NCBI RefSeq assembly: GCF_964204865.1
Contig: NC_135254.1
Location: forward strand, 18,228,001-18,292,000
Direction of reading: 5' to 3'
DNA from: Styela clava
Lineage: Eukaryota
DNA length: 64,000 nt
The translations under genes and the position numbers were made by a program. Below, piece by piece: positions 33,701 to 59,633 of this stretch. The notes beneath the pieces were generated by a model. That model was given only the letters and a program-made list of their open reading frames with translations, did not search any database and was not told where the DNA came from. Positions within the stretch are counted from its first letter, which is position 1. Each line of letters starts with the position of its first letter.

Positions 33701-36700
33701 ACAGAATTGCAAATAAACGTAATAAATTATGCCGCAGTAACATCAAATGACAATATCCGTATCAAATGAGTTGTCATACAGTGTGTCCAAAAAGTCTGTT
33801 CACAATTTCAATTTTGTTATGAAGTCAGTTCTCATTATATCTTAACCATATTTTTTGATTTTTAATCAGTGATAATTTAAGTATTTTTCTTCATTTAATA
33901 CGTATGTGAGGGCCAAAACAATATATGGTATCGATAAGTTAAATTTCAAACATTTCAGGACTCAAGGACACCCGTATATATTGAAATATGAAAAAGACTG
34001 CGCCTCGCCAAGTTCGGGGGTTGAACAGATTATATATGTCGTTATACATTTCGAATAAAACTTTCATGTTACCGCCTCGCGCCATTTTGTAAAGTACAGT
34101 ATTCGATAGATGCTGAATCAGAAACAGAGCTACTGTACTACACAATTGCCAAGTTATGAATAACCGAATCGCCGTGACAGTGAACGACCAATCAAAGCGA
34201 CTGTATCATTTCATATTTGAAAAAAAGTATTTTAGTATATATAAAGTTCCTTAAAACTCTGTACTATTTGCTGGAGTGGAATGTGGTATTTCGTATTGAC
34301 GTTCACAAATACAATTCATTTTTTTTTATGTATGAGTATTCATATGTTCAAATTATAGGAATCTGACACTTGGTGGTAATTTCCGACGTTTTTACAAAGA
34401 CTAGAGCATGTTCTTTCATTCCGTCCGGTACATCGATTTTTTTATTTGAAGCCAATTATTCTGTCTGCACCCACGTCACTTGCTAATTTTTCAATGCTAT
34501 TTACTATGTCTCCTGCGGAAAATATCTTTATCTTCACATTAGTAGAATGAGCAGGCAGGCGATAGTCTAATAAATTTTCTTTATGTAAGACGCAATGTCT
34601 TGACAAACCTATTCTTCGCCACATCAAAAATCCAGTTCACAGTAATTTCATTCGCAATGACAAGAAAGGGGCATCATTTTCAAGAAGCCAATGATTGGTT
34701 GAGTTGTATGAATCACCCAAAATGTTCGTGGTGTTTGCATTCACATACATAGGCGAGAAAACTTTCTCAAGTATGAAGATTAGCACAAGCAAAAACAGAT
34801 GTCTTCTAAGGATTTAAATTTACAAATTGTCTTAAGAATCAGCACAATCTGCTTCGAGCCTAATTTAAACACGCTTTCGGACGCATGCAGTAGGCTACAT
34901 CAGTCCCATTATCCATTGTGCCACTAAATACACTGACTGTTTTTTATCCATAACTTCATTTTAAATTTGAGGCCTCTGGTTAAGTACCCGAGTCTATTAT
35001 CTGTAACTGGCCCACTCAGGAAAGTAATTCTCCACCACTGCAATGAATTGATTATTTTTGGCAAAATGGCGTAAGGCCCAAAATGCGATAGTCTTATTTA
35101 GTACGCTGCTAAGGGTGCGTATTCTTTGGCTTACATATTTGTATAAACTTTTTTTTTCTAAAACGGGCATCATGAAATCTCCTTATTTAGGGTTCTGACA
35201 GAAGATTACTTGGGAAATGGACTTAAAATTGCTAGCACTTCCATTGAAGCAAATTTATGGAAAAAGTTGTCGAAAAAGAGGTTGGCTGCAAATTTCTCAC
35301 TGAATTCATTCGGTGTGACAATTAATTTGAATAGCAGTTTTCTTAAGGCATTATTCGTCTTAACTCATTTTGTCCTGTACGTCAATATTTGTACTTGAAG
35401 CCAATTGTTCTGTCTGTACTCACGTCACTTGCTAATTTTCCAATGTTATTTACTATATTTCCTGCGGCCAATACCTATATCTTTACATTAGTAAAACGAG
35501 CAGGCAGGAAATTCACTAATAAATTTGCTTTATGTAAAACGCAATGTCTTGACAAACCTATCCCTCGCTACTTCAAAAGTCCAGTTCACAATAATTTCTT
35601 TCGTAATGACAGGAAAGACGCATCATTTTCAAGAATCGCTTGAAAAATAATCGTGGTGTTTGCATTCACACACAGAGGCGAGCAAACTTTCCCAAGTATG
35701 GAGACTGACAAAGGCAAAAACCCATGTCGTCTAAGAATTTAAACACACAAGCTACCTGCCTTAAAAAATCAGCACAAGCTGCTTTAAGCCTAATTTAAAC
35801 ACGCTTTCGGACGCATGCAGTAGGCTAGCGACATCAGTCCCATTAATCATTGTGCCACTTAATACACTAGCTGTTTGTCGTATTTCAATTAGCTGTTATT
35901 TATGAATAATTTATTTATCCATAATTTCATTTTGAATAGTTGAGTACCCAAGTCTATTTTCTGTAACTGGCCCACTCAAGAAAGTAATTCTTCACAACTG
36001 CTATAAATTGATCTTTTTTGGCAAAATGGCGTAGGGCCCAAAACGCGATAGTCTTATTTAGTACCTTGCTGAGGGTGCGTATTATTTGCTTGGCTATCAC
36101 ATATGTTGAATAAGAAAGTAAATGATCTGATTTACATCGCTTTCATGTAAAGAATTGTAAAGTATGAGAAACAGAATTGCAAATAAAAGTAATAAATTAT
36201 GCAGCTGTATCATCAATTGACAATATCCGTCTCAAATGAGTAGTCATACAGTGTGTCCAGAAAGTCCGTTCACAATTTCAATTTTGTTATGAAGTCAGTT
36301 ATCAATATATCTTAACCAGATTTTTTGTTTTTTATTCAGCGAGTTCAAGTATTCTTACTTCATTCAATATGTATGTGAGGGCCGAAACAATATATGGTAT
36401 CGATAAGTAAAATTTCAAACATTTTAAGACTCAAGAACACCCTATATAACGGAGTATGAAAAAGACTCGCCTCGCCAAGGAATTTACATTGAATTCCTTC
36501 TACTATGCATTGTGATCAAATTTTGGACTTAAAAAAGCTCTCGAAACTACCATAAATCATGGAATATGTAACGTCATCTAACTCAGAATAAACAATTTCA
36601 TAGTAAAATTCATTCACTTTTTTTCAATATCAAGCTAATGGGGTTTGGGCTGTTCAGAAAATTGGCACTTCAAAATTGAATTTGTTCTATTTAGAACTAT

Positions 36701-37207
36701 ATGAAATGCAATGGGTGATTGAATATTTATGCTAAATTTTTTCCAAATGCATATTATTTAATGATTGTACCTGAAATGAAATGTTGAAGTCAAAAGCCTT
36801 CTTCTTGATTTCCACTTTTCTCCAGATGACGTTAGAAGACCAGTTGCAAGCCAAGGTTGAAGAAATTTATATACCATAGACTTCTTAGTATGTTGTGAAC
36901 TATGGAGTAATGTTTCTGCGCTGTTAGGGCCAAATATATAAACTACTGGAACCGATCCCAAGCTGATAACTCCTATTTCATCACCCGAGGTTAAAGATCT
37001 TTCTCGCATGCCGTTCATATTTCTTTTGTATATTTCTTCTGATCTTCCAGTTAACACTAATGCCTGACCCAAGATTGGCCAGGTTTTGCCCTCAGGGCCC
37101 GAAATATTTTTAAAATGACTCCATTTTTTGCGATGTTTCTTTGTCAGAATTATTGACCAGCAAACACAAGCAAATGCAAGAGCTAATGTAATAATGCTCA
37201 TTTCCAT
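21476..37207 (-). CDS. CYP4V2: Cytochrome P450 clan 4 (CYP4V2-like), 6 coding exons: join(complement 36771..37207, 25523..25729, 23474..23757, 22982..23216, 22054..22146, 21476..21734), 504 aa
   Basis: Manual splicing gives a continuous 1515-nt frame with compatible intron phases. Motifs: N-terminal TM anchor, [29 protein letters not shown]-helix [14 protein letters not shown] (CYP4 signature), K-helix ECMR, DPERF, heme motif [14 protein letters not shown]. The subfamily label is by resemblance only. Confidence 0.93.
22054..22146 (-). CDS. CYP4V-like exon 5 ([31 protein letters not shown]), not in the ORF track in this frame
   Basis: 93-nt phase2-phase2 exon with acceptor tttaag|A and donor AG|GTAAAG. 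It supplies the expected DG..P.GT / ..P..WPD segment before PERF. Confidence 0.88.
22982..23216 (-). CDS. CYP4V-like exon 4 ([11 protein letters not shown]...[11 protein letters not shown]...KEC)
   Basis: Acceptor ttacag|GT completes FEGHDTT; donor GT|GTAAGC. Confidence 0.92.
23474..23757 (-). CDS. CYP4V-like exon 3 (SAAGLITKR...RLAFLDMLL...EEVDTFMFE)
   Basis: Acceptor tttttag|T; ends at the non-canonical donor G|GCAAGC. Confidence 0.9.
23664..24629. repeat. Tandem duplication (23664-24144 and 24149-24629, 485-bp period) spanning the CYP4 intron-2/exon-3 junction
   Basis: The two copies appear identical by eye, with a 4-nt filler TAAT at the junction. Confidence 0.93.
25523..25729 (-). CDS. 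CYP4V-like exon 2 ([13 protein letters not shown]...[13 protein letters not shown]...EYVKAIK)
   Basis: Acceptor acacag|C and donor AG|GTATTA; in frame with exons 1 and 3. Confidence 0.92.
25827..26685. mobile_element. Non-autonomous hAT element in CYP4 intron 1 with a transposase C-terminal remnant
   Basis: CAGGGGCGTGCC ... GGCATGCCACAG ends; 8-bp TSD GCTGTAGA/GCTGTAAA (7/8); minus-strand [11 protein letters not shown] near 26190-26225 (hAT dimerisation motif S.ERSFS). Confidence 0.78.
26810..36478. repeat. Higher-order tandem array in CYP4 intron 1: four ~2.5-kb units, each made of two diverged sub-units
   Basis: Marker TTACCGCCTCGCGCC at ~26829, 29328, 31836, 34069. Marker CGGACGCATGCAGTAG occurs eight times (~27641, 28614, 30135, 31088, 32374, 33329, 34878, 35808). 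Confidence 0.93.
29046..29234. mobile_element. Tc1/mariner-like MITE remnant, amplified once per array unit (also ~31546, 33779, 36249; partial at ~22246)
   Basis: TA|CAGTGTGTCC ... GGACACCCTA|TA imperfect TIRs. Confidence 0.45.
36771..37207 (-). CDS. CYP4V-like exon 1 ([12 protein letters not shown]...TSTFHF)
   Basis: Within ORF 36758..37306. ATG at 37207 precedes the hydrophobic anchor; donor AG|GTACAA at 36771/36770. Confidence 0.9.
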
Positions 37208-39171
37208 TTTGAATTGACCTGAAATGTATTTGTAAATATTAATTATACTGTTCAACATAAATCCTCCTGTGTATATCGGGTTATATATACCATGTCTATG
37301 TACCATTATTTGTTTGTTCTACAGATATATCTGGTATGATACCCAACAAATCAAATTTTACTTTTTTGTAACATTCTTTCATCTACTTGGTTGCTTTCAC
37401 TAAGTTCTCATTGTAATCTGACACACAAGACATTGATTGCTCTGGTAAATATATACCGTACAACAAGAAAATCCGGTAATGTTAAAATAAATTTTGCTGT
37501 CATTACTTTGAAGAATGTACATGTAGTTTGTAGAGTATATCATGTTGATACTTGCTGCCGAATATTTTTGCGGCGAATGCTTTGTAGAATCTCGCAACTC
37601 TCTTGAAATTAGGTTGCAATTGCTGAAAAACCCTAGTCCAATTTACAAACAAAAAAAATTGATGTCAATTTTTGTTGTATCTTTTTTATGAGTCCCAAGT
37701 CGAAATTAACTATGTCAAAGTTCAGAAAAAGGCGTTTACGGGTGTTAAATTCCGGGTTCAATATTTGCGTGCGAATCAAAATCCAAACTTTAACTTGTGC
37801 AAACATATTACATTTTATATAGATTGTGTGCGTTATAACCAGTTGTATGCAATCTAAACATTTGAATTAAGTTGGTAAAATTATGATTCAACTTTAAATA
37901 TTTGATTGGAATACATCAATTCACAACTTAATAAATTTTATTGTTAATATGAAAAATAAGATATTGAAATATTTTCAAAACGCGCCTCATACGAATGATG
38001 ATTATTTAAAATAAATGATTGGAAAATATTGCATTTTAGAAAACTGGAATAGTTATTCAAAATCATTTCCTAAATTTATGAACCTAAATAGAATGTGGCA
38101 CATACCCCTAAAATTATTATTTGTTTGAGATAAAGAAACAGAAAATGTGAAGCAGAAATTTCCCACATATATTTGTTGGAAATTTCTCATCAATTTAATG
38201 ATACATTTGAAAACGGACGTAAAAATAAACATTGCCCGCATCATAAAAAATGTGTGAAATTTGTTCTTTTGAAAACATATCGATTTAAAAAGAATTTCGG
38301 AATTCAACTGATTTTAAGAAATTTCTTCGATCAGGGAAATCGAGCATACGCACAGAAACATTTTTATGAGTTAAGTATGAAAAGCTAGCGCCAAAAAAAC
38401 GGTAAAAGAATTTTTATTGATTGCAGCATTGGTATAGCTTAACTAAGTAAAATGCGTTAACGATCCAAATTTTCAATTATTTCTCAAAGGAATTCCAAAC
38501 ATGACCAACTCATCGTGAAGGCAATGACAATTGAATAAGTTTCAAATCGCATCCGTGATATTTATACAGTTTTTTGCTAACTAAATCTACAATATAAAAC
38601 TGCTTGTATTTGGACTACAATTTTACATTGCAGTGTTCACAACCCTCCTTAATATTTCAGCGCATTCAACCCATCGATAAAACATATAAACGCGAGAACT
38701 TCTCGTAAACCATTACAAAATGAAGGTAATTCAGTTACTCGCTAATTTTCAGTTTAATATTAATTATTGAAAAATACTGAATATCTTGTAGTTTGTGGTA
38801 TTAAGATTTCTCGAATTAAATTAAACTGTATAAGTGTGAATGTGCCGCCTTATTATAATGTTGGATTCAATGCACCTATGCGCTAAAATCTATCTGAGCA
38901 AACCGTCAGTGCGCAGGTCCTTGGGGGTTAGATTACATATTCAAACAATAGCAGCTCTTTGTTATAGTTGATTGATAGTGACCCTAACGTATAAATATTC
39001 TTGTTATGAAAGGCGTTTAGATGCATATAAATAAAAAACAAACTATAGCAATTTTAGGTGCTTTCACATTCGTAAATTAATAACACGTGAGCAACATCAG
39101 AATTCATTTTTCCCAACTAGATTAGGTCTTTCATTGCGAGATGTTTTCATCTAGTTTTACATGGTGAAAAC

Positions 39172-41628: not shown

Positions 41629-42148
41629 ATCTTTATAATACTATCTCGTTCAAGCATCCTTATGGCAGTTGACACATACGGATCTGAAGTAGAAAGTAAA
41701 CAAGAAGAACGGACTTGCAGTTCAGTACAAAATACCCTAGTATACTAAATACATTTATTCGCTGATCTGTGGTTTCATATTCACTTCTGGGTCTCCGTTA
41801 CTGGTAAGATTATGATTCACCAAAAACGGCTATAAAATATTGTTTTAAATTCTTCTGTTTAAATAATACACTATCTGTGCGAAGCTTTGCTTTTCCGAGG
41901 ATTGAACGAAACTTACGCATTATGTTTACTCAAGTGTGTCTACCCAGTGTGTTTAGCTTTCTTGGCATGATATATTGAAGGAAATTGCTACGTGGTTATT
42001 TTGAATAGCATTAGACAAATTAGACATTTTGAATAGCATTAGACAAAATTTTCGCTGCATATTAAAAAATCTACAAATATGGTACCCAATATGGTGTTGC
42101 CTTTATCTGAATGCATGATTATGTAAGTAGTAGTATAGGTCGGATTCG

Positions 42149-42859
42149 ATACCCAAATAATGTTGCACATGTTGAGCAAATGTTGATCAATGATGCAAAT
42201 GTTGAGCAATACCCAAATAATGTTGCACATGTTGAGCAAATGTTGATCAATGATGCAAATGTTGAGCAATGGTGGTACGTAGGAAGTTGTTATGTAATAT
42301 TGTTTCCGGTATCAGGGGATAGCGTTTGGTAATTTTCGAAAACCATACCCAAATAATGTTGCACATGTTGAGCAAATGTTGATCAATGATGCAAATGTTG
42401 AGCAATACCCAAATAATGTTGCACATGTTGAGCAAATGTTGATCAATGATGCAAATGTTGAGCAATACCCAAATAATGTTGCACATGTTGAGCAAATGTT
42501 GATCAATGATGCAAATGTTGAGCAATGGTGGTACGTAGGAAGTTGTTATGTAATATTGTTTCCGGTATCAGGGGATAGCGTTTGGTAATTTTCGAAAACC
42601 ATACCCAAATAATGTTGCACATGTTGAGCAAATGTTGATCAATGATGCAAATGTTGAGCAATACCCAAATAATGTTGCACATGTTGAGCAAATGTTGATC
42701 AATGATGCAAATGTTGAGCAATACCCAAATAATGTTGCACATGTTGAGCAAATGTTGATCAATGATGCAAATGTTGAGCAATGGTGGTACGTAGGAAGTT
42801 GTTATGTAATATTGTTTCCGGTATCAGGGGATAGCGTTTGGTAATTTTCGAAAACCATA
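42149..42859 (+). repeat. Subterminal hierarchical tandem array: 60-bp unit x(2,3,3), each block followed by an identical 76-bp linker (256-bp higher-order period)
   Basis: Unit ATACCCAAATAATGTTGCACATGTTGAGCAAATGTTGATCAATGATGCAAATGTTGAGCA; the same ORFs recur every 256 bp in the track. Confidence 0.95.
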
Positions 42860-44423
42860 TCGGCAACCGTGTGTTAGTCATTAAGTTTATGGTTTGTCGT
42901 ATATTTACATGCACCTATGGAATTTTTTTGTTTTTGTTTACGTACATTTGAACTCATGTGTTGTTTTTGATAATTTGTGAATGTAATCAGCATTTCAAGT
43001 ACATGTACCCACACTACTTGCATTTTGAAATTTGGATTTCATCAATATTACGTAAGTCAGTACGTATATGTGAGTATTATACGTCAGCGAAACATGACTG
43101 TATTCCTCATAGCAATGCTCGTATTAGAAGTGAATAAGATATGATTTATTTGATTAGCTTTTATCATTGGCAGCTTTCGTTTATGTTCTTTAGCTTCCCA
43201 AATGTGTTAGTCATTAAATTTATGGTATATTTTGTATGTGTTTATATATTAGAGTATTGAGCAATATATATGAGGGTTTAAATCTTCTTTTTTGAGCCGA
43301 GTGATGCAGAGTGGTAATTTATTTCGTGTTTAGGAAATCATGCAATGTCGTAGTTAAGTTTTGTGCATCTGTTGATTGGAAACAACCATAAGGATGTACT
43401 GACTTTAGTAGAAAAATGACAACTGAGTTGACATAATTAAATTCAAAAAACGTATGTTTACTGACCGACGTATGTTAAAATAATTGAAAAACGATTGTTA
43501 TTGGAGGTTTAGCGAGAAATAAAATGCAACAGGCTGCGCATCGGTTTGAAAAAAAAAATTACAATATAAAACAGCTGACAAAAAAAAAGGTCGTGTTTCC
43601 CGGTCTAGTCGTTTGATTTGTTTTTTTTTTACAGTTGTTTATTTTTTTTTTCATTACTCTTTTATTTTCGGTTTATTTTTGATCTTGAAAATTTTATTTT
43701 TTTTAAATTTTTTTTTTTTTTTTCAATTTTACAAGAAATCGATAGTTTGACATATTATTTACCACAGAGATTCTTTTTCACAGACTTTACTGTTGTTTTT
43801 GATAATTTGCGAATGCAATCAGCATTTCGAGTACATGTACCCACACTACTTGCATTTTGAAATTTGGATTTCATCAATATCACGTAAGTCAGTACGTATA
43901 TGTGAGTATTATACGTCAGCGAAACATGACTGTATTCCTCATATCAATGCTCGCAAGTAGATTGTTCTTCCTCGTATTAGAAGTGAATAAGATATGATTT
44001 ATTTGATTAGCTTTTATCATTGACAGCTTTCGTTTATGTTTTTTAGCTTCCCAAATAGGCAACCCTAGTGATTGTCCTACATTCCCCAGATGTGATGCCA
44101 GACTTCAATACCTAACTTCGGTAAAATTGTCTTTGAATATTCAAAAAATGGTATATTTATCAGTGTAGAGTAGATGGTCTGTCATATACATAACACATTT
44201 TTATAAGTTGCAAATAGTTTCATCGCTATTGGCAAAATATTTACCACCCTCTAAATTTCGAAACACAACCCCCCCCAATAATGAAAATATATATATATCA
44301 ATGGAGCATGGTAGCCAGAATAATGATATCATAATGGATGGGAAGCAGATAATAATATTTAACAAAGGTTACCAAAGTAAACAAGATCCGAAAATGATAT
44401 AAATATATTAGTACAATGTCATA

Positions 44424-45320
44424 TTACCGTAGAAGTTTTTTGTTGATAATTTCCCATACCATGGCTCGCCGAAAGTAAGGCATATCTCGCTGGGAAAATG
44501 TTAAGTCTGATTTAGAAGTAATATACTCTGCAAATTTGCAAGCAAAGACTCCACAATCTGATCCATTCATTTGTTGCGGTATATCAGACATTGACAACAG
44601 TTGCCAGTCAGAAAGATTGATCTCTGATCCTTTTTTATCCTTGTGCTCACAAAGAAGATAATTTTTTAGGATTTCAAGGCATTCCCGATTGGCTCCACCC
44701 ATTGAATCATAATATCTTATTTGTTTCGATATGAAATCAACGACAGCTAGACACCAATGCACGCCAAGATGTATTGGATACAGAACGATGTCTTTGGAAA
44801 ATATATCAACTTTTTTTGTCCACCGACGTACTGATGTATAAGATTGTGTACTCAATCGAGGATAAAAGAATGTATTCATGGAATGTACTGCGGGGTAATC
44901 TTTTACATCTTTAGAGCGCTGAACAATCAATTCCATATAAAAATTTATAATTTCATCATTAAGCCAATTTAGACCGAACAAAGTCGACATGTGCTCGCGG
45001 GTTATTGAAATGTTGAAACACTCAGAAAGGACTTGATTTGGAGGATATGGAACTAGTGCTTTGTTTATGTGTTCGCTCATGTCGGAAGTCAGCTCAGGAA
45101 GTGTGGGTTGTTCGATAATCTTTTTTTCTTGGAGTTTTAATTTGTTGTGTAAAATTTCAGCCAGAAGTGCATCTTTCTCTTTACGTTTCTCGTGCCAAAG
45201 TCGGGCTCGTGTTTCTTCAGCACGTGTTTGAGCTTGCCTCTGACGAACTCGACGATTGTATGTTTTTAACATGTCAGGAACGAAATTTTGTGACAAATAT
45301 GGAGAAGAAAACTCTTTCAA
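44424..45320 (-). CDS. SENP1: SENP1/2-like SUMO-specific protease (Ulp1 / peptidase C48 catalytic domain), copy 1; first ATG at 45272 (282 aa)
   Basis: WLNDEIINFYM, NTFFY, HLGVHWCLAVVDF (catalytic His), YYDSMG (Asp), PQQMNGSDCGVFAC (oxyanion Gln and Cys), MPYFRRAMVWEI; uninterrupted frame. The ORF-track start is TTG. Confidence 0.92.
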   Translation of the reverse strand: MKEFSSPYLSQNFVPDMLKTYNRRVRQRQAQTRAEETRARLWHEKRKEKDALLAEILHNKLKLQEKKIIEQPTLPELTSDMSEHINKALVPYPPNQVLSECFNISITREHMSTLFGLNWLNDEIINFYMELIVQRSKDVKDYPAVHSMNTFFYPRLSTQSYTSVRRWTKKVDIFSKDIVLYPIHLGVHWCLAVVDFISKQIRYYDSMGGANRECLEILKNYLLCEHKDKKGSEINLSDWQLLSMSDIPQQMNGSDCGVFACKFAEYITSKSDLTFSQRDMPYFRRAMVWEIINKKLLR

Positions 45321-48300
45321 AATCTGGCTTCTCTTTATACTATCATTGAGAGTGGTTTCTGTTTGACTTTCGGCACCCCGAAGGACTAAGTTGTATATAC
45401 TTATCGCTTTGTGTAAAAACTTTCACTTGAATCGTTTTTTATTTTAATTTTTAAATTTTCACGTCATTGGACGCGAAATGGACGTGTCCTTTGTCCTGTC
45501 CGATATCCATTTTGTTATTGTGCTATTGTTGTAGTCGGAATTCTTCTTTTTGTTGTGAAAAAAAAAATCGCGTTTCTCATTAACTACAAGACCAATTGCT
45601 TTTGCTTTGATTAGTTTCAAAGACTTGTGTGGTCTTTATGGAATTATTCATTCCAAAATTTTTAACTCTTAACTATATGCACATATATACTTGAGTTTTT
45701 ACACCAACTTCATCTTGCAGTCAAGCGAAAAATTACAGCTTATAATTAGAGAAAAATAAATTAGTTTTTAAAATTTTTGATAAACAAAACACACTTCTCT
45801 CATTTTTAACATCCATAATTCAGTATTCATCAAAAAATAAACGAAGAATCTAATTATATTGCAAAACTTCCACGCCAGAAGGACCAAATAATATATACTT
45901 ATGAGAAATGCTTCGCGTCAGCATCTTTGTTTTGAATTGTTTTTTATTTCAATTTTGGAACTTCATTTTATTGGACACGATATGTACCTATAATTGCTTT
46001 CTTTTTCATGTTATTGTTACGTTATTGTTGGTGTAATTTCACTTTTTGTCGCTTTTCTCTATCTATGGAACCAATTGCTTTGAATTTTGCATTGGGTAAA
46101 GATTGTTGTACTCTAATTAATTTAAAAAACTGTTGTGGGCTATATGGAATTTATTTTTCATTTCAAAATTTAAAAAAAATGCGTCAGTCTGCCGATACTG
46201 TACGATTATGATGCTATTTCATTTTAGCTTTCGTGTCCATATATTGAAGCATTGATTTTTTGTTTTTATAAGAGCAAGCAAGGCCATGCGCACCAACTCA
46301 GGAGTAAAGGAGACTGACCTCGATACATTGTACGAGTTAAAAATAAAATCTCCGGCAAATGTTGTTCTTATGTCATAAAAAAAAAACTTGAGCACATTGA
46401 TTATTCGACAAAATCGAATTTAATGAACAACCCCAGCAAAATCAGAACCAATATATCCTAGAAAATTTTCTGTCAGGGTTTTTTGACGTTGGCAAGATAT
46501 AGAGATTTGAATTATACGTTTTTTTTTACTAAAATCGCGGCATTGGGCCTTTCAGCAAATCTTACGATGGAAATTTTGGACTTGCAGAATATTAAGGAAT
46601 ATGCAACGTAGAGTGTTCTATTCACTGTAAACATCACAAAGATAGAAACTATACTCATCAAATAAACTGTCGTAAGTTCAATTATTATTCGTTTTCATAC
46701 GTTTTCTGTGTACGTAACTAATCAGTAGAGTAAATCCACATCTTGCAATCAAACTTGATTCTAAAAATATAAAAAATATGATTTGTCTCAGTATTATTCC
46801 GTAGATGCAAATGTATTTGGTGTACTTGCTTCTGAATCTACTTATTTTGGGGATTGCACTCAATACAGCATTCCACTTTTTAGATGTATATATTCGCTTT
46901 TAACAAACTTTGAAGTCAAAGAGATTTCAAAAAATTAGTCTTAAGTGACCACTAACTGTATGCAAAAAAAAAATTATTTTTTAAAGGCACAAGTTGATAT
47001 GGTATCACAAGAAGACTTGAATATTTTTTGTCTGGAACGATTATGAAAAACGCAAAATGATAAATCGCTGATAAGAACACACTTCGGATTGAAAGTGCGC
47101 TACCGGTAAAGTTTTCTCGGATAGGATACGGTCGAACGAAAACTTTTAACTTACCCTTACTGGTATTTTTACGCAGGAACGTAGCAAAGTTGAAAATGTG
47201 TAATATTAAGCTGTGATTAAAGAGAATTGTTATTGCACATATACTAAAACAAAAAACACTCACTTGATCCTGTTGATTGCACCTCGGACGTAATTTTGGT
47301 AATGCGTACCTAATTCTGTACTTGAATGCACTGGAAAATGGAACCGTTTCAGACCAATGTACAGTTGTGCTTCGCTGATTGAAATTATTGAGATGATTTT
47401 AATAATATATCTGTCTTAAGGCTACCATAATAACAGAAACAAGAGAGCAATTCCCAAATATATGTACACGTTAACCAGAGCGAAGCAATGCTTACCTTTG
47501 ACGCTACCGGTACCCTCCAACAATTTCCGAGTTACTCGTAGCAAGAATTTACAGTATCTAACTGGACAGCCAGAGTTCCCATGTATAAAATAATACAGCG
47601 AAATTTTGGACGAAATATCAGACTTCATACGAAATTTAGACATAAAGAAAAGTAATAGCCTTCTGGCAAAAAATCAATCTTTACCCACTGAAAATTTTAA
47701 AGCCATTGTCCAAGTATTCGAAGAGAGAAGCTATTTTTAATGATAATGATGACGAATAACAAGAACAACAACAACATAATATCGAAACAATCGCTATGTC
47801 CATTAGCGTGTCCAAAAACAAAGACATTGTAAGAAAGGTAAGGTTTGTTTTTTCGTCCGGGTGTCAACGGATCGTGAAAGTACTACATCGAGTTACTCGT
47901 GGCGTCAAATTTAATACCCATTCGAAAACCAATGTTCTTTTCCTTAGCTACTGGACTAAACGCTTTCGAAATATCAGATGTTGAATATAGTGTCATCCTC
48001 TAAAAAAATTCACTTTCCTTTTAAAATAAATCATCAGGACTTCCCGTGCTCATTGTAACCCCACATATTGTTTTAAGTTGAACTACGGCGTGGTTTTTCC
48101 GATGAGCCAATTTTCCGAGCAAGTATTAAAAATAGAACAATATAACAGAGTTGAACGATGATTTAGCAAAACTTTCCACAGGTTTATTCATGTTCAATAG
48201 GCTACTGAGATGACAACGTTCATTTAGTTACAATAGCTCACTTTCATTGCATATTGCATTAAATGTTTCGTTTTATCATCTGAAAGAGAGACCGCTTTCT

Positions 48301-48528
48301 TTGCGCCAGGCATCGTTATAAATATCAACTTTTTTACGGTATTCAAAACTTCGTGAAGAGCCTGAGAACCAAAAATAAAATGGCAAGTTGGTATCAAAAT
48401 TACCTTGACAACGAACGTTCATTATGATTATTATAATATAAAATTAATGATATCGTGGTAAGGACATTTTCTAAAGTCTAAACTATACATTGTCAGTAAT
48501 CATAATTACATACCAATCAGTTCTTATT

Positions 48529-48748
48529 GGTGACAGCACATTTGAACCCACGTACATTTGCACCCGTACATTTGCACCCACCGACATTTGCATCCCGGAC
48601 ATTTGAACCCCCGTACATTTGCACCCACCGACATTTGCATCCCGGACATTTGCACCCCGGACATTTGCACCCCGGACAATTGCACCTACATACTATTGCA
48701 CCTATGGAATTTTTTTTTGTTTTTGTTTACGTACATTTGAACTCATGT
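48529..48748 (+). mobile_element. Truncated left end of a MULE-like element (ACATTTG[A/C]ACCC subterminal repeats) in the palindrome spacer
   Basis: GGTGACAGCACATTTGAACCCACGTACATTTG... resembles the termini and subterminal repeats of the MITEs at 3451 and 39172. It stops at the right-arm junction. Confidence 0.7.
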
Positions 48749-50908
48749 TCTGGTTAACGTGTACATATATTTGGGAATTGCTCTCTTGTTTCTGTTATTA
48801 TGGTAGCCTTAAGACAGATATATTATTAAAATCATCTCAATAATTTCAATCAGCGAAGCACAACTGTACATTGGTCTGAAACGGTTCCATTTTCCAGTGC
48901 ATTCAAGTACAGAATTAGGTACGCATTACCAAAATTACGTCCGAGGTGCAATCAACAGGATCAAGTGAGTGTTTTTTGTTTTAGTATATGTGCAATAACA
49001 ATTCTCTTTAATCACAGCTTAATATTACACATTTTCAACTTTGCTACGTTCCTGCGTAAAAATACCAGTAAGGGTAAGTTAAAAGTTTTCGTTCGACCGT
49101 ATCCTATCCGAGAAAACTTTACCGGTAGCGCACTTTCAATCCGAAGTGTGTTCTTATCAGCGATTTATCATTTTGCGTTTTTCATAATCGTTCCAGACAA
49201 AAAATATTCAAGTCTTCTTGTGATACCATATCAACTTGTGCCTTTAAAAAATAATTTTTTTTTTTGCATACAGTTAGTGGTCACTTAAGACTAATTTTTT
49301 GTAATCTCTTTGACTTCAAAGTTTGTTAAAAGCGAATATATACATCTAAAAAGTGGAATGCTGTATTGAGTGCAATCCCCAAAATAAGTAGATTCAGAAG
49401 CAAGTACACCAAATACATTTGCATCTACGGAATAATACTGAGACAAATCATATTTTTTATATTTTTAGAATCAAGTTTGATTGCAAGATGTGGATTTACT
49501 CTACTGATTAGTTACGTACACAGAAAACGTATGAAAACGAATAATAATTGAACTTACGACAGTTTATTTGATGAGTATAGTTTCTATCTTTGTGATGTTT
49601 ACAGTGAATAGAACACTCTACGTTGCATATTCCTTAATATTCTGCAAGTCCAAAATTTCCATCGTAAGATTTGCTGAAAGGCCCAATGCCGCGATTTTAG
49701 TAAAAAAAAACGTATAATTCAAATCTCTATATCTTGCCAACGTCAAAAAACCCTGACAGAAAATTTTCTAGGATATATTGGTTCTGATTTTGCTGGGGTT
49801 GTTCATTAAATTCGATTTTGTCGAATAATCAATGTGCTCAAGTTTTTTTTTTATGACATAAGAACAACATTTGCCGGAGATTTTATTTTTAACTCGTACA
49901 ATGTATCGAGGTCAGTCTCCTTTACTCCTGAGTTGGTGCGCATGGCCTTGCTTGCTCTTATAAAAACAAAAAATCAATGCTTCAATATATGGACACGAAA
50001 GCTAAAATGAAATAGCATCATAATCGTACAGTATCGGCAGACTGACGCATTTTTTTTAAATTTTGAAATGAAAAATAAATTCCATATAGCCCACAACAGT
50101 TTTTTAAATTAATTAGAGTACAACAATCTTTACCCAATGCAAAATTCAAAGCAATTGGTTCCATAGATAGAGAAAAGCGACAAAAAGTGAAATTACACCA
50201 ACAATAACGTAACAATAACATGAAAAAGAAAGCAATTATAGGTACATATCGTGTCCAATAAAATGAAGTTCCAAAATTGAAATAAAAAACAATTCAAAAC
50301 AAAGATGCTGACGCGAAGCATTTCTCATAAGTATATATTATTTGGTCCTTCTGGCGTGGAAGTTTTGCAATATAATTAGATTCTTCGTTTATTTTTTGAT
50401 GAATACTGAATTATGGATGTTAAAAATGAGAGAAGTGTGTTTTGTTTATCAAAAATTTTAAAAACTAATTTATTTTTCTCTAATTATAAGCTGTAATTTT
50501 TCGCTTGACTGCAAGATGAAGTTGGTGTAAAAACTCAAGTATATATGTGCATATAGTTAAGAGTTAAAAATTTTGGAATGAATAATTCCATAAAGACCAC
50601 ACAAGTCTTTGAAACTAATCAAAGCAAAAGCAATTGGTCTTGTAGTTAATGAGAAACGCGATTTTTTTTTTCACAACAAAAAGAAGAATTCCGACTACAA
50701 CAATAGCACAATAACAAAATGGATATCGGACAGGACAAAGGACACGTCCATTTCGCGTCCAATGACGTGAAAATTTAAAAATTAAAATAAAAAACGATTC
50801 AAGTGAAAGTTTTTACACAAAGCGATAAGTATATACAACTTAGTCCTTCGGGGTGCCGAAAGTCAAACAGAAACCACTCTCAATGATAGTATAAAGAGAA
50901 GCCAGATT

Positions 50909-51805
50909 TTGAAAGAGTTTTCTTCTCCATATTTGTCACAAAATTTCGTTCCTGACATGTTAAAAACATACAATCGTCGAGTTCGTCAGAGGCAAGCTCA
51001 AACACGTGCTGAAGAAACACGAGCCCGACTTTGGCACGAGAAACGTAAAGAGAAAGATGCACTTCTGGCTGAAATTTTACACAACAAATTAAAACTCCAA
51101 GAAAAAAAGATTATCGAACAACCCACACTTCCTGAGCTGACTTCCGACATGAGCGAACACATAAACAAAGCACTAGTTCCATATCCTCCAAATCAAGTCC
51201 TTTCTGAGTGTTTCAACATTTCAATAACCCGCGAGCACATGTCGACTTTGTTCGGTCTAAATTGGCTTAATGATGAAATTATAAATTTTTATATGGAATT
51301 GATTGTTCAGCGCTCTAAAGATGTAAAAGATTACCCCGCAGTACATTCCATGAATACATTCTTTTATCCTCGATTGAGTACACAATCTTATACATCAGTA
51401 CGTCGGTGGACAAAAAAAGTTGATATATTTTCCAAAGACATCGTTCTGTATCCAATACATCTTGGCGTGCATTGGTGTCTAGCTGTCGTTGATTTCATAT
51501 CGAAACAAATAAGATATTATGATTCAATGGGTGGAGCCAATCGGGAATGCCTTGAAATCCTAAAAAATTATCTTCTTTGTGAGCACAAGGATAAAAAAGG
51601 ATCAGAGATCAATCTTTCTGACTGGCAACTGTTGTCAATGTCTGATATACCGCAACAAATGAATGGATCAGATTGTGGAGTCTTTGCTTGCAAATTTGCA
51701 GAGTATATTACTTCTAAATCAGACTTAACATTTTCCCAGCGAGATATGCCTTACTTTCGGCGAGCCATGGTATGGGAAATTATCAACAAAAAACTTCTAC
51801 GGTAA
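50909..51805 (+). CDS. SENP1: SENP1/2-like SUMO-specific protease (Ulp1 / peptidase C48 catalytic domain), copy 2; first ATG at 50957 (282 aa)
   Basis: Translation identical to copy 1, with the full His-Asp-Cys triad. Confidence 0.92.
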   Translation: MKEFSSPYLSQNFVPDMLKTYNRRVRQRQAQTRAEETRARLWHEKRKEKDALLAEILHNKLKLQEKKIIEQPTLPELTSDMSEHINKALVPYPPNQVLSECFNISITREHMSTLFGLNWLNDEIINFYMELIVQRSKDVKDYPAVHSMNTFFYPRLSTQSYTSVRRWTKKVDIFSKDIVLYPIHLGVHWCLAVVDFISKQIRYYDSMGGANRECLEILKNYLLCEHKDKKGSEINLSDWQLLSMSDIPQQMNGSDCGVFACKFAEYITSKSDLTFSQRDMPYFRRAMVWEIINKKLLR

Positions 51806-53370
51806 TATGACATTGTACTAATATATTTATATCATTTTCGGATCTTGTTTACTTTGGTAACCTTTGTTAAATATTATTATCTGCTTCCCATCCATTATGA
51901 TATCATTATTCTGGCTACCATGCTCCATTGATATATATATATTTTCATTATTGGGGGGGGTTGTGTTTCGAAATTTAGAGGGTGGTAAATATTTTGCCAA
52001 TAGCGATGAAACTATTTGCAACTTATAAAAATGTGTTATGTATATGACAGACCATCTACTCTACACTGATAAATATACCATTTTTTGAATATTCAAAGAC
52101 AATTTTACCGAAGTTAGGTATTGAAGTCTGGCATCACATCTGGGGAATGTAGGACAATCACTAGGGTTGCCTATTTGGGAAGCTAAAAAACATAAACGAA
52201 AGCTGTCAATGATAAAAGCTAATCAAATAAATCATATCTTATTCACTTCTAATACGAGGAAGAACAATCTACTTGCGAGCATTGATATGAGGAATACAGT
52301 CATGTTTCGCTGACGTATAATACTCACATATACGTACTGACTTACGTGATATTGATGAAATCCAAATTTCAAAATGCAAGTAGTGTGGGTACATGTACTC
52401 GAAATGCTGATTGCATTCGCAAATTATCAAAAACAACAGTAAAGTCTGTGAAAAAGAATCTCTGTGGTAAATAATATGTCGAACTATCGATTTCTTGTAA
52501 AATTGAAAAAAAAAAAAAAAATTTAAAAAAAATAAAATTTTCAAGATCAAAAATAAACCGAAAATAAAAGAGTAATGAAAAAAAAAATAAACAACTGTAA
52601 AAAAAAAAACAAATCAAACGACTAGACCGGGAAACACGACCTTTTTTTTTGTCAGCTGTTTTATATTGTAATTTTTTTTTTCAAACCGATGCGCAGCCTG
52701 TTGCATTTTATTTCTCGCTAAACCTCCAATAACAATCGTTTTTCAATTATTTTAACATACGTCGGTCAGTAAACATACGTTTTTTGAATTTAATTATGTC
52801 AACTCAGTTGTCATTTTTCTACTAAAGTCAGTACATCCTTATGGTTGTTTCCAATCAACAGATGCACAAAACTTAACTACGACATTGCATGATTTCCTAA
52901 ACACGAAATAAATTACCACTCTGCATCACTCGGCTCAAAAAAGAAGATTTAAACCCTCATATATATTGCTCAATACTCTAATATATAAACACATACAAAA
53001 TATACCATAAATTTAATGACTAACACATTTGGGAAGCTAAAGAACATAAACGAAAGCTGCCAATGATAAAAGCTAATCAAATAAATCATATCTTATTCAC
53101 TTCTAATACGAGCATTGCTATGAGGAATACAGTCATGTTTCGCTGACGTATAATACTCACATATACGTACTGACTTACGTAATATTGATGAAATCCAAAT
53201 TTCAAAATGCAAGTAGTGTGGGTACATGTACTTGAAATGCTGATTGCATTCACAAATTATCAAAAACAACACATGAGTTCAAATGTACGTAAACAAAAAC
53301 AAAAAAATTCCATAGGTGCATGTAAATATACGACAAACCATAAACTTAATGACTAACACACGGTTGCCGA

Positions 53371-54081
53371 TATGGTTTTCGAAAATTACCAAACGCTATC
53401 CCCTGATACCGGAAACAATATTACATAACAACTTCCTACGTACCACCATTGCTCAACATTTGCATCATTGATCAACATTTGCTCAACATGTGCAACATTA
53501 TTTGGGTATTGCTCAACATTTGCATCATTGATCAACATTTGCTCAACATGTGCAACATTATTTGGGTATTGCTCAACATTTGCATCATTGATCAACATTT
53601 GCTCAACATGTGCAACATTATTTGGGTATGGTTTTCGAAAATTACCAAACGCTATCCCCTGATACCGGAAACAATATTACATAACAACTTCCTACGTACC
53701 ACCATTGCTCAACATTTGCATCATTGATCAACATTTGCTCAACATGTGCAACATTATTTGGGTATTGCTCAACATTTGCATCATTGATCAACATTTGCTC
53801 AACATGTGCAACATTATTTGGGTATTGCTCAACATTTGCATCATTGATCAACATTTGCTCAACATGTGCAACATTATTTGGGTATGGTTTTCGAAAATTA
53901 CCAAACGCTATCCCCTGATACCGGAAACAATATTACATAACAACTTCCTACGTACCACCATTGCTCAACATTTGCATCATTGATCAACATTTGCTCAACA
54001 TGTGCAACATTATTTGGGTATTGCTCAACATTTGCATCATTGATCAACATTTGCTCAACATGTGCAACATTATTTGGGTAT
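53371..54081 (-). repeat. Mirror copy of the subterminal 60/256-bp array
   Basis: Exact reverse complement with the same copy numbers. Confidence 0.95.
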
Positions 54082-55322
54082 CGAATCCGACCTATACTAC
54101 TACTTATGTACCAACCAATTAAAATTTAGATGGTTTTAATCTATTAAACAAAGAAACACCCACTAATACCAAGTGGCACTAGATGCATTTCATTTCTATA
54201 TTACTTGCCGTTTGCGAAAGATCTCAGATTTGAATTTATTTATTGTGTTCAGAAAACTCGACGTTTTCTTTTCTCTGCCGCATGGCATAGGCACATAAAT
54301 TTAATGTTTAATATACATCACATAAAGTACTAAAATACCTTTTTTGTTAATTCATTGCCCAACTCTCTGTTATTTCTTTATGGCCACCCCATAAATCGTT
54401 TGCTTGCATCAGCCATTCGCATTCGCCCATGCTTAAGTGGCATATCTTACGAAAGCAAAATGCTGTTATCCAGTAATAACGGCGACAAAAAATAAACAGT
54501 CGGAATTGTAAGCGTCACTGCGCGTGGTTCCCACTGCCGACGAGGAATTTACAAGCACCACGGCAAATAGTCGAACGGATAATATTATAACGAGGTTCTC
54601 GAACTAATCTTAAGTTGCGATTGTTATGCATCGAAGGAAGAGAGTATCACCGATCACATGGATTTGTAGAAGCACGCCACATGACATAAATTTTACAATG
54701 AGGTATTTATGTAAAATGGCAATCTATCTGTTTGCTCTTCCATTCCCATATTATTTAGCGAGATTTGCACCATTTGTCACAAATTTACGATGTCATTCGA
54801 TTTATGCACGTTTGGAACCGAAACCTCTTTTTGGTAAATAATAACGGTAACTGTAATTTAGACAGTAAATAGGCGTGCTCAGTTTTACATTTCAATTTAT
54901 TAGTCTATGGACGGGTTTACCCTTTTGTAGAGTTCCGGTTATCGACGCGTATTTTTCTTATATATGAATAATAACTAATCTACAATACGTTCGCCATGGA
55001 TCGAATGGCTTACCTATATGTATCAATAACATGTTGACGACAAACACCTGTAACGTAAACAATATATTGTGCAATTCGACCTTGTATCAAAATTATGTGC
55101 TAATTCGCACTTTATTTAGAGAATTGTGATAGATGATTTTGTAGGATGAATGGTATACTTTAACCCATTGCTTAAACATCGCTGATACTATTTTCTATGT
55201 TTGCAAAAAATTAGAAATTATTTCTTTAAAAAACTTTTGTTTTTATTTCATATTCGAGAATAGGAGCGTTCATTAATGCTATTTAAAAAAAAATTATCTT
55301 TTCGTGTTCTTTGGTAGTTGCC

Positions 55323-55890: not shown

Positions 55891-57449
55891 TGTCTAACCC
55901 GCCATATTTGGCGCACGTCGCAGAAGTCACTTTCCTGACGCCATCTGTATTTGTAAATCAAATATTTGTTTCGTCATAATCATTTACTTCATGAAATCCG
56001 CAAACACTGTGTTTTGGAACATGTTTTGGCATAGCACAAAGCAACATCGAAATCACGAGAATCCGACCCAACATATGTTTGTTTTAAACATGGAAATTTT
56101 TGAATTGAACAGAACATTAAAATATATTTTTTTTTTAGAAATAAATTTTGAAATTATTCAATTTTAGGTTTGTACTCAACGGCTCATTGTTAAATACAAA
56201 ATTGGATATTGGTATTTATTTTTAAAGAAGCAATCACATAGGTTTTCCGAATATTGCAACTCATAAAATATCAACCTCGGAACGGAACGGAACACTCTAT
56301 TCTGAAGCGCACTTTTCATGAAATGAACGTGATCATAGCAACATCAAACTGATTATTTATAAGCTTATTTATGTTGAACACACGAAGATAGTGCAACCAA
56401 TCAGGCAATCACAAAGATATATTCTTCATCTAGCGCAGTCATCGCACTAATATGTTGCTGATACAAGACCATGCCAAATCTTCTACTCCCGATATGTATA
56501 CCAAATATATCACTTGTTGTCCCAATAGTGACAATATGTAGCATTTGTATCGGGTGTATGAGAAGAAGTACTTTCATCCTCCATAATTCCGTTACCAAAC
56601 ACAATACGAGGATCATATGTAAGCAATATACCTTGCACCTCTGGTATACCATAAATGCGCATTTACCGAATTCAGCTTTTATACATGCGCATGCCTTGAC
56701 TGATGGAAAAGGGAATTCTGTTATTTTTTTAATCCAAGTTCACTGGATACTGGAAATTGCTGTTGAAAATGACACATTTAGCTTCTTTCTCCGACATGAT
56801 TTTTGAAGGATATTTATTGTTATACCTTTATATGTGATATACTTAATCAAGCTTTTGCGTTTATTTCCGTTCGTCTTAAATTCAAAGGTAACTTCTTTCA
56901 GTTGTCAATTGTGGGAATTTTGTAACGTAAGGGGCCAATGTTGAGACGGACAAGCACATGAATTCTGCACAGACTCGACATGGTTGAGTAGCTACGGTCT
57001 ATAGCTATAATCTTTCGACTTTGATACCATCATGCTGTTCGGCACCCTTTGAGCTGGTTGGTGGGTTCAAAAATGCATTGGTTCAATTAGAGAAACCTTT
57101 TACTTAAAAATGCAGTTCGAGAGTTATGTCGAAGCAATGCCATAACCATAAGGTGCTTACTTATTGACAATATTTGAATACAAGTAGACATAGTAATATA
57201 AGCACACAAAGGGAACATTTCGAAGATGAGAAAAAATTTCAGTTTGTGATTCAACCATATTTGGTATTCATTTCTGAATTCGACCGATCAGGTTTGGTAC
57301 AGACAACAGGGTGTCTCAAAAATGTCGTGTCCCACTTATCCCACGTGACCCACTTGTACCACAGGTCCCGTGTCACACTTGTTCCATGTGTCACACTTAT
57401 CCCACTTGTCCGGTACTCATCCGATATTGATGCCTTGTGATATTGAAGC

Positions 57450-58430
57450 ATCAGATGTCTTGTACACCTACATCTTATACATCAGATGTTTTGTCCACAT
57501 GAATCCCATTTATCATGGATACCATTTACCAGATGTTTTGTCTATATACATTCATATCACGAAATGTTTTACCACCAACATTTGCTATGTTTTTGTTTTT
57601 TCATGAAATCTCTTTCATTAGCGGTTTTGTCCACATAAATCCCTTTCGTCAGATGTTTTGTATACATGAATCCCGTTTATCATACATCTCATTACCAGAA
57701 GTTTTGTCCATATGCGTCTCATCCAGCCGTATTCAGTACTCATAGATATCCGTTCATTAGGGGTTTTGCCACATATATCTCATTCAACAATATTTTGTCC
57801 AAATACATTTCACTCGTCAGATGTTTCGTTCACATCCATCTCATTCATCAGATGTTTCGTTCACATCCATCCCATTCATCAGATGTTTCGTCCACATCCA
57901 TTCCATTCTCCAGGTGTTTCGTCCACATCAATCCAACTCATCAGATGTTTCGTCCACTTTCATTCCATTTTTCAGGTGTTTTGTCCACATCAATCTCACT
58001 CATCAGATGTTTCGTCCACATCCATTCCATTCTTCAGGTGTTTCGTCCACATCAATCCAACTCATCAGATGTTTCGTCCACTTTCATTCCATTTTTCAGA
58101 TGTTTCGTCCACATCCATTCCATTCTTTAGGTGTTTTGTCCACATCAATCCCACTCATTAGATGTTTCGCCCACATCCATTCCATTCTTCAGTTGTTTTG
58201 TCCACATCAATCCCACTCATTAGATGTTTCGTCCACATCTATTCCATTCTTCAGGTGTTTTGTTCACATCCATTTCATTCACCAGATGTTTTGTTCACAT
58301 TCATCCCATTCTTCAGGTGTTTAGTACACATCCATCCCACACATTCGATGTTTTGTCTACATCCATTCTATTCTTCAGATGTTTTGTCCACATCCTGTCC
58401 ATCCATCAGATGTTTTGTCCACATCCATTC
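57450..58430 (+). repeat. ~31-bp minisatellite (CAGATGTTTCGTCCACATCCATTCCATTCTT-like), homogeneous in 57815-58430 and degenerate to the left
   Basis: Visible periodicity; it generates repetitive RCFVHI / SSDVSST ORFs in all three frames. Confidence 0.92.
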
Positions 58431-59633
58431 CGTTCCGGTTGTTGGACATTTTACTGCATTTGCGGTCCCGTTGTTGAAATAAAATTGTGGTAAAAAATGA
58501 ATAGCTTACTTTTTCTGGTGAACTCAGTTATTAATTTATGTTTTTTTTACATCATATTAGATCTTTTTACGTTACAACACGCAAATAACTAGTACAGCAG
58601 TAACGTGTAATAGATGTTCCTCCGACCTTTGACCCCACGAAAATTCATTATATGGACCTTTCCCCGAGCATCAACTTCCTTGTTTACTTCGGGACATTAG
58701 TCAATCAGCAAGATGCAAAAAGTGACGTAACTATGCTCCCTTTGCGCATCCGCTCAGACACTTTTCCCACTCAGACAGATTTTCAAGCGTGGTCGTAAAC
58801 ATTACCTCGTTTTCGCATATTTGAACTCTATTCGTTAGTTTTCAGTTGTATTTCGGAAACTTAAATGTAAACCAGATAATTCAATGATCACTTCGTCTTC
58901 CTAGGAGTTTTAATAAAAATTAGTGTAGAAATAGCTGTGATAAACTAGGCTAAAATTCTTTACCGGTACTTTTAAAAACAGATATATACGATAATTCATA
59001 ATGATGGTTTCAAACACACACCCCATTTTACAGGCGCCAACTCGCAAAAGCACTCTTAAAATAGCCCCAAAAATTTTGCAATGGTCAAGTAAAGGAAGAA
59101 TTTTTAGGGGGTCTTAGATCGGGAAAAGGTCCATACCTTTCTAATAATAAAATTTATATTGAATTGCTATGAATACTCTTATAATTTCACACAAACATAT
59201 TTCATATAATTTCTTTGCAGTTCTGTAAACGTCCGCGTCGTGTTGTGAATATATTACATTTTTGCGAAGTAGGTGCGTTCCGGTTGTTACGATTTTTCCA
59301 GGTCATCACTGGTCAGAATAGCTGAAAAATATTTTCATTTTTTGTATGTATATACAATCAAATTTTTATTGAAAAATATCCGTCATAAATAGTAATTACA
59401 ATCTTCAGTAAAATCAGTTATAGTTCACCTACACACCAATTTCCACAACCTTAAAAAATTGCTCTGATTATTCGTTTAAGTCAAGTGAAGCTCTTCCCAA
59501 GTGAATAAAATCCTATACAGTACGTGGGACAAGTGGAAGACGTGGAACACGACATTTTTGAGACACCGTATACGGCATCACCATTATTCGATGCACCAGG
59601 GCTCCTTTCTTACGAGTGGAAATCGAGAGTGTA

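Follow-up and report, generated by a model that had tools for sequence, protein, structure and literature searches.

The accessible parts of the sources cited here describe several systems close to the element of the ascidian Styela clava that is the subject of this report. The signature of Mavericks (Polintons) consists of (AGT)2 ends and a 6-bp target-site duplication (TSD), and the S. clava element shares with them this signature, long terminal inverted repeats (TIRs) and a size of 10-16 kb (PMC8097293); unlike them, it has no core genes and holds, inside its arms, a fragment of a housekeeping gene of its own genome with a traceable parent. Nematode Mavericks carry host-derived cargo (10.1101/2022.07.12.499685), in butterfly polintons the TIRs contain genes, so that each insertion has two copies of them (10.1101/2025.02.07.637071), and a non-autonomous Polinton has been named in zebrafish, Polinton-1N1_DR (PMC9341505).

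Pieces of host genes inside non-autonomous TIR elements are known as animal Pack-TIRs, such as Ssk-FB4 of Drosophila, and as Pack-MULEs; the S. clava element resembles these also in its microhomology breakpoints (median 2 bp in Pack-TIRs), multicopy state, location distal to the parent gene and chimeric transcript (PMC8277862). It differs from Pack-TIRs in carrying its cargo in both arms, and whereas Ssk-FB4 has peptide evidence, the S. clava cargo is known from sequence and RNA-like contigs. Polinton/Maverick has zero occurrences in the available portion of the Pack-TIR survey (PMC8277862). Proteases of the C48 clan are likewise found in mobile elements, as the Ulp1 domains of Ginger1 and Mutator-like elements and the vUlp1/adenain of Polintons (PMC2836005, PMC11161782), but these form old and divergent portions of the element proteins, whereas the S. 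clava cargo is 99% identical in protein sequence to the host enzyme. The cargo has all the catalytic and tunnel motifs of metazoan SENP1/SENP2 and is set apart from them by the lack of native residues 1-214 of 496, the putative N-terminal regulatory and targeting region.

Maverick host cargo, TIR-doubled polinton genes, non-autonomous Polintons and Pack-TIRs are thus already in print. The founding Polinton paper, by Kapitonov and Jurka in 2006, reportedly also includes palindromic non-autonomous Polintons of zebrafish, and the palindromic non-autonomous architecture itself may already be known. Our literature search, which had the founding paper, Repbase and bioRxiv supplements outside its scope, turned up neither a palindromic non-autonomous Polinton that carries a piece of a gene of its own genome in each arm nor any paper on Polintons in Styela (further sources consulted in part for comparison: PMC3014272, 10.1101/2024.01.15.575659, PMC6431247, PMC5499653).

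Architecture of the element and its SENP1 frame

The features of the element are given below by their positions in the window, that is, the whole 64,000-nt stretch of S. clava DNA that was analysed.

42120..42125 (+): left TSD, TATGTA, read from the sequence; the paralogous empty site holds the hexamer once
42126..54104 (no strand): whole element, 11,979 bp, with ends AGTAGTAG...CTACTACT; non-autonomous, palindromic, Polinton/Maverick-type
42126..47479 (-): left arm, 5.35 kb, with 99.9% identity to its right-hand counterpart
42149..42859 (no strand): left subterminal tandem repeats, 256-bp and 60-bp units made of about 10-bp motifs
44297..45377 (-): host SENP1 segment as captured in the left arm, mirror image of 50852-51932
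44424..45272 (-): 282-aa SENP1 frame of the left arm, the same in sequence as that of the right arm
47480..48748 (no strand): central spacer, 1,269 bp, unmirrored here, unlike in most sister copies
48242..48366 (-): 125-nt exon of the element transcript, with ATG 48313, 24 codons (MPGAKK...AMK) and a GTGAG donor; its sense leads into the left arm
48749..54104 (+): right arm, from the inverted-repeat alignment
48965..49468 (+): 504-nt GT..AG intron of the element transcript, in the same sense as SENP, with a mirror copy in the left arm
50808..50809 (+): AG acceptor in the model XP_039253412.1, which brings the 24-codon exon into the SENP frame (355 aa)
50852..51932 (+): captured host SENP1 segment, right arm, 98% identical to G000:C8:4829789-4830880
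50957..51805 (+): 282-aa SENP1 frame, right arm, a basic helix plus the C48 domain, with E31K and N212D relative to the native gene
53371..54081 (no strand): right subterminal tandem repeats, from a repeat search
54105..54110 (+): right TSD, TATGTA, read from the sequence

About 90% of the element is arm sequence, and the arms align as an inverted repeat (42124-47479 against 48749-54106) at 99.9% identity, with three substitutions and two one-base indels. The terminal AGTAGT motifs are flanked on either side by the 6-bp duplication TATGTA, and the empty paralogous site at G000:C5:18292450 has a single TATGTA with both element flanks contiguous. Core Polinton genes (pPolB, integrase, ATPase, capsid and protease) are absent, and the SENP frames are the only ones within the element longer than 152 aa. 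Because the SENP1 frame sits inside the 5.36-kb inverted repeat, an identical second copy lies on the minus strand, at 44424-45422.

The frame is closed upstream by a TGA at 50804-50806 and runs unbroken from the ATG at 50957 to the TAA at 51803-51805 (282 aa). Its landmarks are WLNDE (from 51263), His172 (51470), Asp189 (51521), the oxyanion Gln234 (51656) and Cys240 (51674), and the WLNDE and HW tryptophans, the His-Asp-Cys triad and the oxyanion Gln are all present. The first-pass annotation of this DNA, made from the sequence alone, had described just such an uninterrupted SENP1/2-type frame, and this description stands. Its assignment of the domain to the cellular SENP1/2 type is also upheld, by a Pfam Peptidase_C48 match (E 1.2e-43) and by a PDB search that placed the human SENP1 catalytic domain on top (E 4.5e-83), followed by SENP2 (E 4.4e-71) and yeast Ulp1 (E 3.4e-28). 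The frame is distinct from a Polinton protease, as had been claimed: the protease-like frame of a resident Polinton gave a BLASTP E of 2.6. N212D introduces the Asp that human SENP1 has at the same column. The frame starts at native residue 215, and the captured DNA begins at residue 180 of the 496-aa native protein; the missing residues 1-214 include a basic stretch that is conserved in related ascidian proteins and would be a targeting signal. An exact look-up of the window protein in the protein collection gave no match, and no further S. clava cargo protein was found there at E 1e-100.

The surroundings of the element include a cytochrome P450 gene at 21476-37318 (-), which starts 4.8 kb from it and was recognised by a Pfam p450 match on the first frame, with further exons assigned by eye; within one of its introns, a unit of about 2.4 kb occurs four times in tandem (26.8-36.5 kb). 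A 31-nt minisatellite at 57328-58435 has long open frames in several phases and is not a gene on this evidence.

The palindrome family and resident Polintons

Own-genome DNA searches, in which the best 40 candidates were scored so that copy counts are lower bounds, recovered at least 18 family copies in the S. clava genome. The 18 that were examined are 3.5-13 kb long, with AGTAGT ends and multi-kb inverted arms and without core genes. Both ends are present in 16 of them (one end of the C18 copy reads AGTGGT), and the target duplications of these 16 are perfect over 6 bp in ten and match at 4-5 of 6 positions in the other six. SENP1 cargo occupies 11 arms, in 6 of the 18 copies. The copy on C13 has it in the left arm only and lacks three changes that are common to all other cargo arms.

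A tree built from 30 inner-arm segments unites all ten arms from copies with cargo on both sides in a single clade (support 96/94), to which the C13 left arm is sister (84/92). The left and right arms of one copy usually pair with each other, and divergence between copies is 1-8%; the C13 copy clearly departs from this, and in the duplicated C5 copies like sides group together. The pattern in the tree is that of arms homogenised copy by copy, probably through end pairing in protein-primed replication or through arm-to-arm conversion. A single capture led to five insertions, one of which was later doubled by a 19.4-kb tandem duplication. Cargo-free copies are equally young (the arms of the C4 copy are 99.8% identical), and the cargo is therefore dispensable for movement.

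The tandem duplication lies at G000:C5:6398645-6440377, and a cluster rich in synonymous changes within the cargo sets its twin left arms apart, which suggests conversion from a native allele. Two regions on C9 (G000:C9:12494533-12507719 and C9:8718001-8729529), which resemble each other at about 88% across more than 10 kb, each contain a single-armed relative of the element inner arm (70-90%) with the 24-codon exon at 94-95%; they are either the donor region or an older relative of the element. Nine AGTAGTAGTATCGG matches were rejected as family members and belong to an unrelated 630-bp foldback repeat.

A gene-bearing Polinton resides at G000:C2:12758297-12774269 (15,973 bp, with an inverted repeat of roughly 340 bp and the TSD TACGTA). 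It encodes an integrase with rve and chromo domains and an IVa2/A32-type ATPase and has a DNA_pol_B_2 match, with a polymerase region that spans more than one frame; its capsid and protease frames were labelled by eye, without a profile match. An OB-fold frame and a C2H2 zinc-finger frame are also present. The first 15 nt of this Polinton are those of the C16 copy of the palindrome family, and the end of the window copy itself departs from the Polinton end after the AGT repeat. No internal sequence common to the family and the C2 Polinton was found, the end identity being about 15 nt. As the family holds no internal Polinton sequence, we infer the helper role of Polinton proteins; judged from the ends, resident Polintons may mobilise the family in trans.

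The S. clava genome harbours a second family of gene-less palindromes, 13.5-13.6 kb long with 6.2-kb arms. All three loci examined (G000:C4:24689045-24702666, C19:11194290-11207937 and C8:17271082-17284582) carry the 394-bp end of the Polinton at 93-96% identity, have 6-bp duplications and contain no frame of 130 aa or more, and arm identity is 99.7-99.9% in two of the three. A BLASTN comparison of the two families gave no match. Two separate palindrome families with Polinton-type ends imply that such forms arose at least twice here, and their presence in one genome suggests that the giant palindrome is a recurring satellite form.

Further paired Polinton-end matches, recorded as positions only, lie on C1 (17.85 Mb), C18 (13.43 and 18.76 Mb) and C2 (22.19 Mb), and a degraded Polinton at G000:C6:22972186-23012966 has several nested inverted repeats and rearrangements. 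Matches to protein-primed polymerases on C317, C271 and C120 need TGA read-through and do not belong to this system; these small contigs have TGA-only interruptions, a pattern that mitochondrial linear plasmids from a co-sequenced organism would show.

Capture, transcription and decay of the cargo

A protein search of the S. clava genome with the cargo gave 23 matches, 15 at 92-100% identity and eight at 21-37%. Fourteen of the 15 close matches lie in 11 element arms, and the remaining one is a native 513-codon frame at C8:4.83 Mb, around which the only family sequence within 40 kb is a common 245-bp repeat. The cargo is thus not the sole SENP1 gene of the species. The 496-aa native translation is identical to the NCBI S. 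clava protein sentrin-specific protease 1-like; since this protein corresponds to a single genomic frame, the native SENP1 coding region is intronless. The search found no second, exon-split SENP1 gene.

The captured segment of 1.08 kb takes in native codons 180-496 together with some 127 nt of the 3' flank, and it matches the native locus at 98% identity. Its junctions with the arm show microhomologies of GG (5') and GAT (3') and have neither poly(A) nor a TSD of the insert's own. In all 18 cargo-free arms examined, the corresponding slot is 1.6-2.5 kb long and has no frame longer than 115 aa; the capture swapped 1.6 kb of non-coding arm for the host SENP1 segment. In a C48 tree of 25 rows (computed without L016, L022, L023 and the Polinton protease, and with bootstrap values not fully settled), the cargo groups with the native gene (100/99) within an ascidian clade (100/100), and five other Ulp1-like frames of the S. 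clava genome are on long separate branches far from it. This placement, the phylogenetic check proposed in the first-pass annotation, supports an own-genome origin and argues against a horizontal one. The cargo is, by all appearances, a DNA-level, Pack-TIR-type capture from its own genome. Of what the annotation had proposed about the origin, capture from the own genome, N-terminal truncation and a mobile carrier are borne out (by the DNA identity, the start at residue 215 and the TSDs), whereas a processed copy is not: retrocopying is unsupported because the parent coding region itself lacks introns, poly(A) is absent, and both junctions show microhomology.

Four sequencing runs were compared as contigs, and three of them, from three studies (X1, X5 and X9), are RNA-like, a software guess that splicing and empty introns support. 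These three contain the joint 48964-49469 and have zero depth inside the intron, unlike X10, which covers everything and has no joint; the first three therefore behave as RNA. The spacer exon boundary at 48242 is where contigs end in X1 (record 2) and X5 (record 17). Two of the three RNA-like runs, from two studies, bridge the junction between element and SENP (X1 at 50672-50911; X5 with a 1,656-nt contig that runs from the spacer exon to 50899), and X9 has the native 5' end alone at this place; stretches bare of contigs were given no weight as evidence of absence. The cargo is thus not silent, a case that the first-pass annotation had set against its own proposal. The element transcript is spliced in the sense of SENP. 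As modelled, the observed RNA has a 1,722-nt leader with 33 ATGs ahead of the ATG at 50957, and the first ORF of this leader ends after 31-71 codons, depending on the start of exon 2. At the stop codon, all contigs listed from the three RNA-like runs are native and none has an element-type 3' end, which is marked by an 11-nt deletion behind the stop, a weak result in that contig assembly drops rare variants.

The NCBI model XP_039253412.1 (P0122, 355 aa), which has K31, splices the 24-codon spacer exon in frame to SENP. Its donor is used in RNA contigs; its acceptor lies in a weak, purine-rich context and is unspliced in X1 and X5, and no joint to 50808-50809 is among those listed from RNA-like contigs. 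The 24-codon exon and both splice sites occur also in cargo-free copies and hence are older than the capture. Another acceptor, suggested earlier at 50843/50844, must be abandoned: it lacks a polypyrimidine tract, and its frame does not agree with that of the upstream exons identified.

The window copy differs from its parent by two replacement and eight synonymous changes (stop codon included). Six of these ten coding differences recur in all copies with sequence at the site, and a native-type contig of X1 or the older native protein has several of the window-type alleles as well; the differences common to all copies look like polymorphism of the donor allele. We therefore rejected dN/dS against the parent, the measure first suggested for this locus, because it is confounded by differences that for the most part would reflect the donor allele.

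The frame is intact in 4 of the 11 cargo arms (both window arms, C17 left and C8 left), and that of C8 left has H168P beside the active site, at a residue that we take to be important for SENP1 activity. The other seven arms are disabled by a nonsense codon, frameshifts, start loss, a 340-nt deletion or truncation. M228L, found in one cargo arm, is the residue of the older native protein P0121. Among copies, dN/dS is 0.3-1.0 and varies with the arms retained: it is 0.31-0.37 for seven full arms (p 0.004-0.011), 0.42-0.49 when one conversion-like arm is dropped, whose synonymous-rich tract is not shared by its duplicate twin (p 0.07-0.12), and 0.43-0.51, 0.6-0.7 and 0.8-0.96 in three more subsets (not significant). 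Over five arms, the backbone rate predicts 24.9 replacements and nine were observed (Poisson p 0.0002), together with five synonymous changes against 7.1 predicted and two changes in the 3' flank against 4.4; on the branch to the two-armed cargo copies, there are no replacements against 3.4 expected (p 0.034). The replacement rate is under the backbone rate in every arm subset. This deficit is the best evidence for function; conversion by native alleles, suggested by M228L and by the synonymous cluster in one of the two duplicate arms, would produce it as well.

Explanations for the cargo

Both the enzyme domain and its capture hold up, with the carrier as the more solid discovery. The cargo is probably a passenger, taken up by a non-autonomous Polinton through Pack-TIR-type capture and doubled via arm homogenisation. 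Under this explanation, gene-less AGTAGT palindromes of 3.5-13 kb with 6-bp TSDs have been moving in the genome, as the family's insertions record, with polymerase and integrase presumably supplied in trans by resident Polintons that have the same end sequence. In one lineage, a piece of host SENP1 replaced arm filler at microhomologies, which fits template switching in gap repair, and arm homogenisation, whose pattern is visible in the tree, may have copied it from one arm to both. The cargo landed downstream of a spliced element unit that already existed, giving the sense chimeric RNA that is observed. Little or no protein would be made from it, movement would not need it and inserted copies would decay, with occasional conversion by native SENP1 alleles keeping the cargo cleaner than the backbone.

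The anti-silencing effector that the first-pass annotation had proposed for the cargo does not follow from these data, given the seven disabled arms, the equally young cargo-free copies and the 1.7-kb leader with 33 ATGs. SUMO is required for transposon silencing; for ascidians, our literature search found nothing on SUMO-dependent silencing of transposons. We consider it unlikely that a truncated, delocalised deSUMOylase, made from ATG 50957 or as the 355-aa fusion, has been selected for easing the silencing of the element or its helper, even though the catalytic residues of the window copy are intact, N212D matches human SENP1, sense transcripts cross the junction in two studies, the donor of XP_039253412.1, an in-frame splice model, is used in RNA contigs, and replacement changes are below the backbone rate. 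According to the accessible parts of two papers, the isolated Ulp1 domain of yeast is active, loses nuclear-envelope targeting and gains substrates (PMC2172760), and Ulp1 domains are recurrent in Ginger1 and Mutator elements (PMC2836005). Against such an effector stand the decay of 7 of the 11 arms and H168P in an eighth, dN/dS of 0.42-0.49 without the conversion-like arm and 0.6-0.96 in the two smaller sets, the equally recent movement of cargo-free copies, and an observed RNA form that is a poor template, with a fusion acceptor that is purine-rich and unspliced in X1 and X5. Moreover, a diffusible enzyme would aid all elements alike, which would weaken selection on the carrier. The fullest version, in which a gene-less Polinton satellite has very recently acquired a host SUMO protease as a new counter-silencing protein, with its targeting N-terminus lost, an element promoter and an in-frame 24-codon leader, doubled and with its frame kept by selection, is similarly doubtful; if true, it would be the birth stage of transposon Ulp1 domains, with the parent, cargo-free relatives and a one-armed intermediate still present.

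An effect at the RNA level, in which hairpin RNA couples silencing of the element to the host's only SENP1 or lowers SENP1 in trans, strikes us as quite improbable. A transcribed palindrome can give hairpin RNA, so that silencing the element would also strike native SENP1 and thereby temper the response, and all site classes of the cargo are below the backbone rate in a four-arm set; an antisense spliced form over the cargo is, however, absent among the contig joints listed. An epigenetic-conflict model of this kind has been published for maize, in a study whose available text itself finds little evidence of an advantage to the element (10.1101/777037). Very improbable, in turn, is a carrier that is a Foldback-like cut-and-paste element instead of a Polinton derivative. 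Subterminal tandem repeats are a Foldback-like trait, and the family has no internal homology to the Polinton. The arms also exceed the TIRs of vertebrate Mavericks (46-1,447 bp in the accessible part of PMC8097293). However, (AGT)2 ends with a 6-bp TSD occur in 16 copies, the 15-nt end identity links the family to a resident Polinton, and the second palindrome family bears the full Polinton end; Ginger2 also has 6-bp TSDs, but its ends are TGTNR (PMC2836005, available portion). Retrocopying, horizontal transfer or an assembly fold-back artefact has next to nothing to commend it. The frame is intronless and 5'-truncated, and an intronless parent leaves an RNA template formally possible, but poly(A) is missing, both ends have microhomology and the cargo groups with the native gene of the species. 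Perfect palindromes can arise as long-read artefacts; here, an artefact is rejected by the TSDs, the empty paralogous site, the independent insertions and the same junction in the protein of an older annotation and in other sequencing runs.

Even with the cargo as a passenger, the preferred explanation, the locus provides an unusually complete record of a capture, with the parent, cargo-free relatives, junctions, and one- and two-armed copies. It extends Pack-TIR-type capture to Polintons, and the copy-by-copy homogenisation of 5-6-kb arms bears on Polinton replication. As C48 domains recur in transposons, a fresh, 99%-identical SENP1 in a family that has copies with and without cargo amounts to a natural experiment on SUMO versus transposons. 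A caution also follows for the S. clava annotation, in which 'SENP1-like' paralogues can be element cargo.

The eight divergent Ulp1-like domains of the genome (L014-L016 and L019-L023; 21-37% identity to the cargo) are probably parts of other transposon proteins, and several of them lie in frames of 500-1,850 aa.
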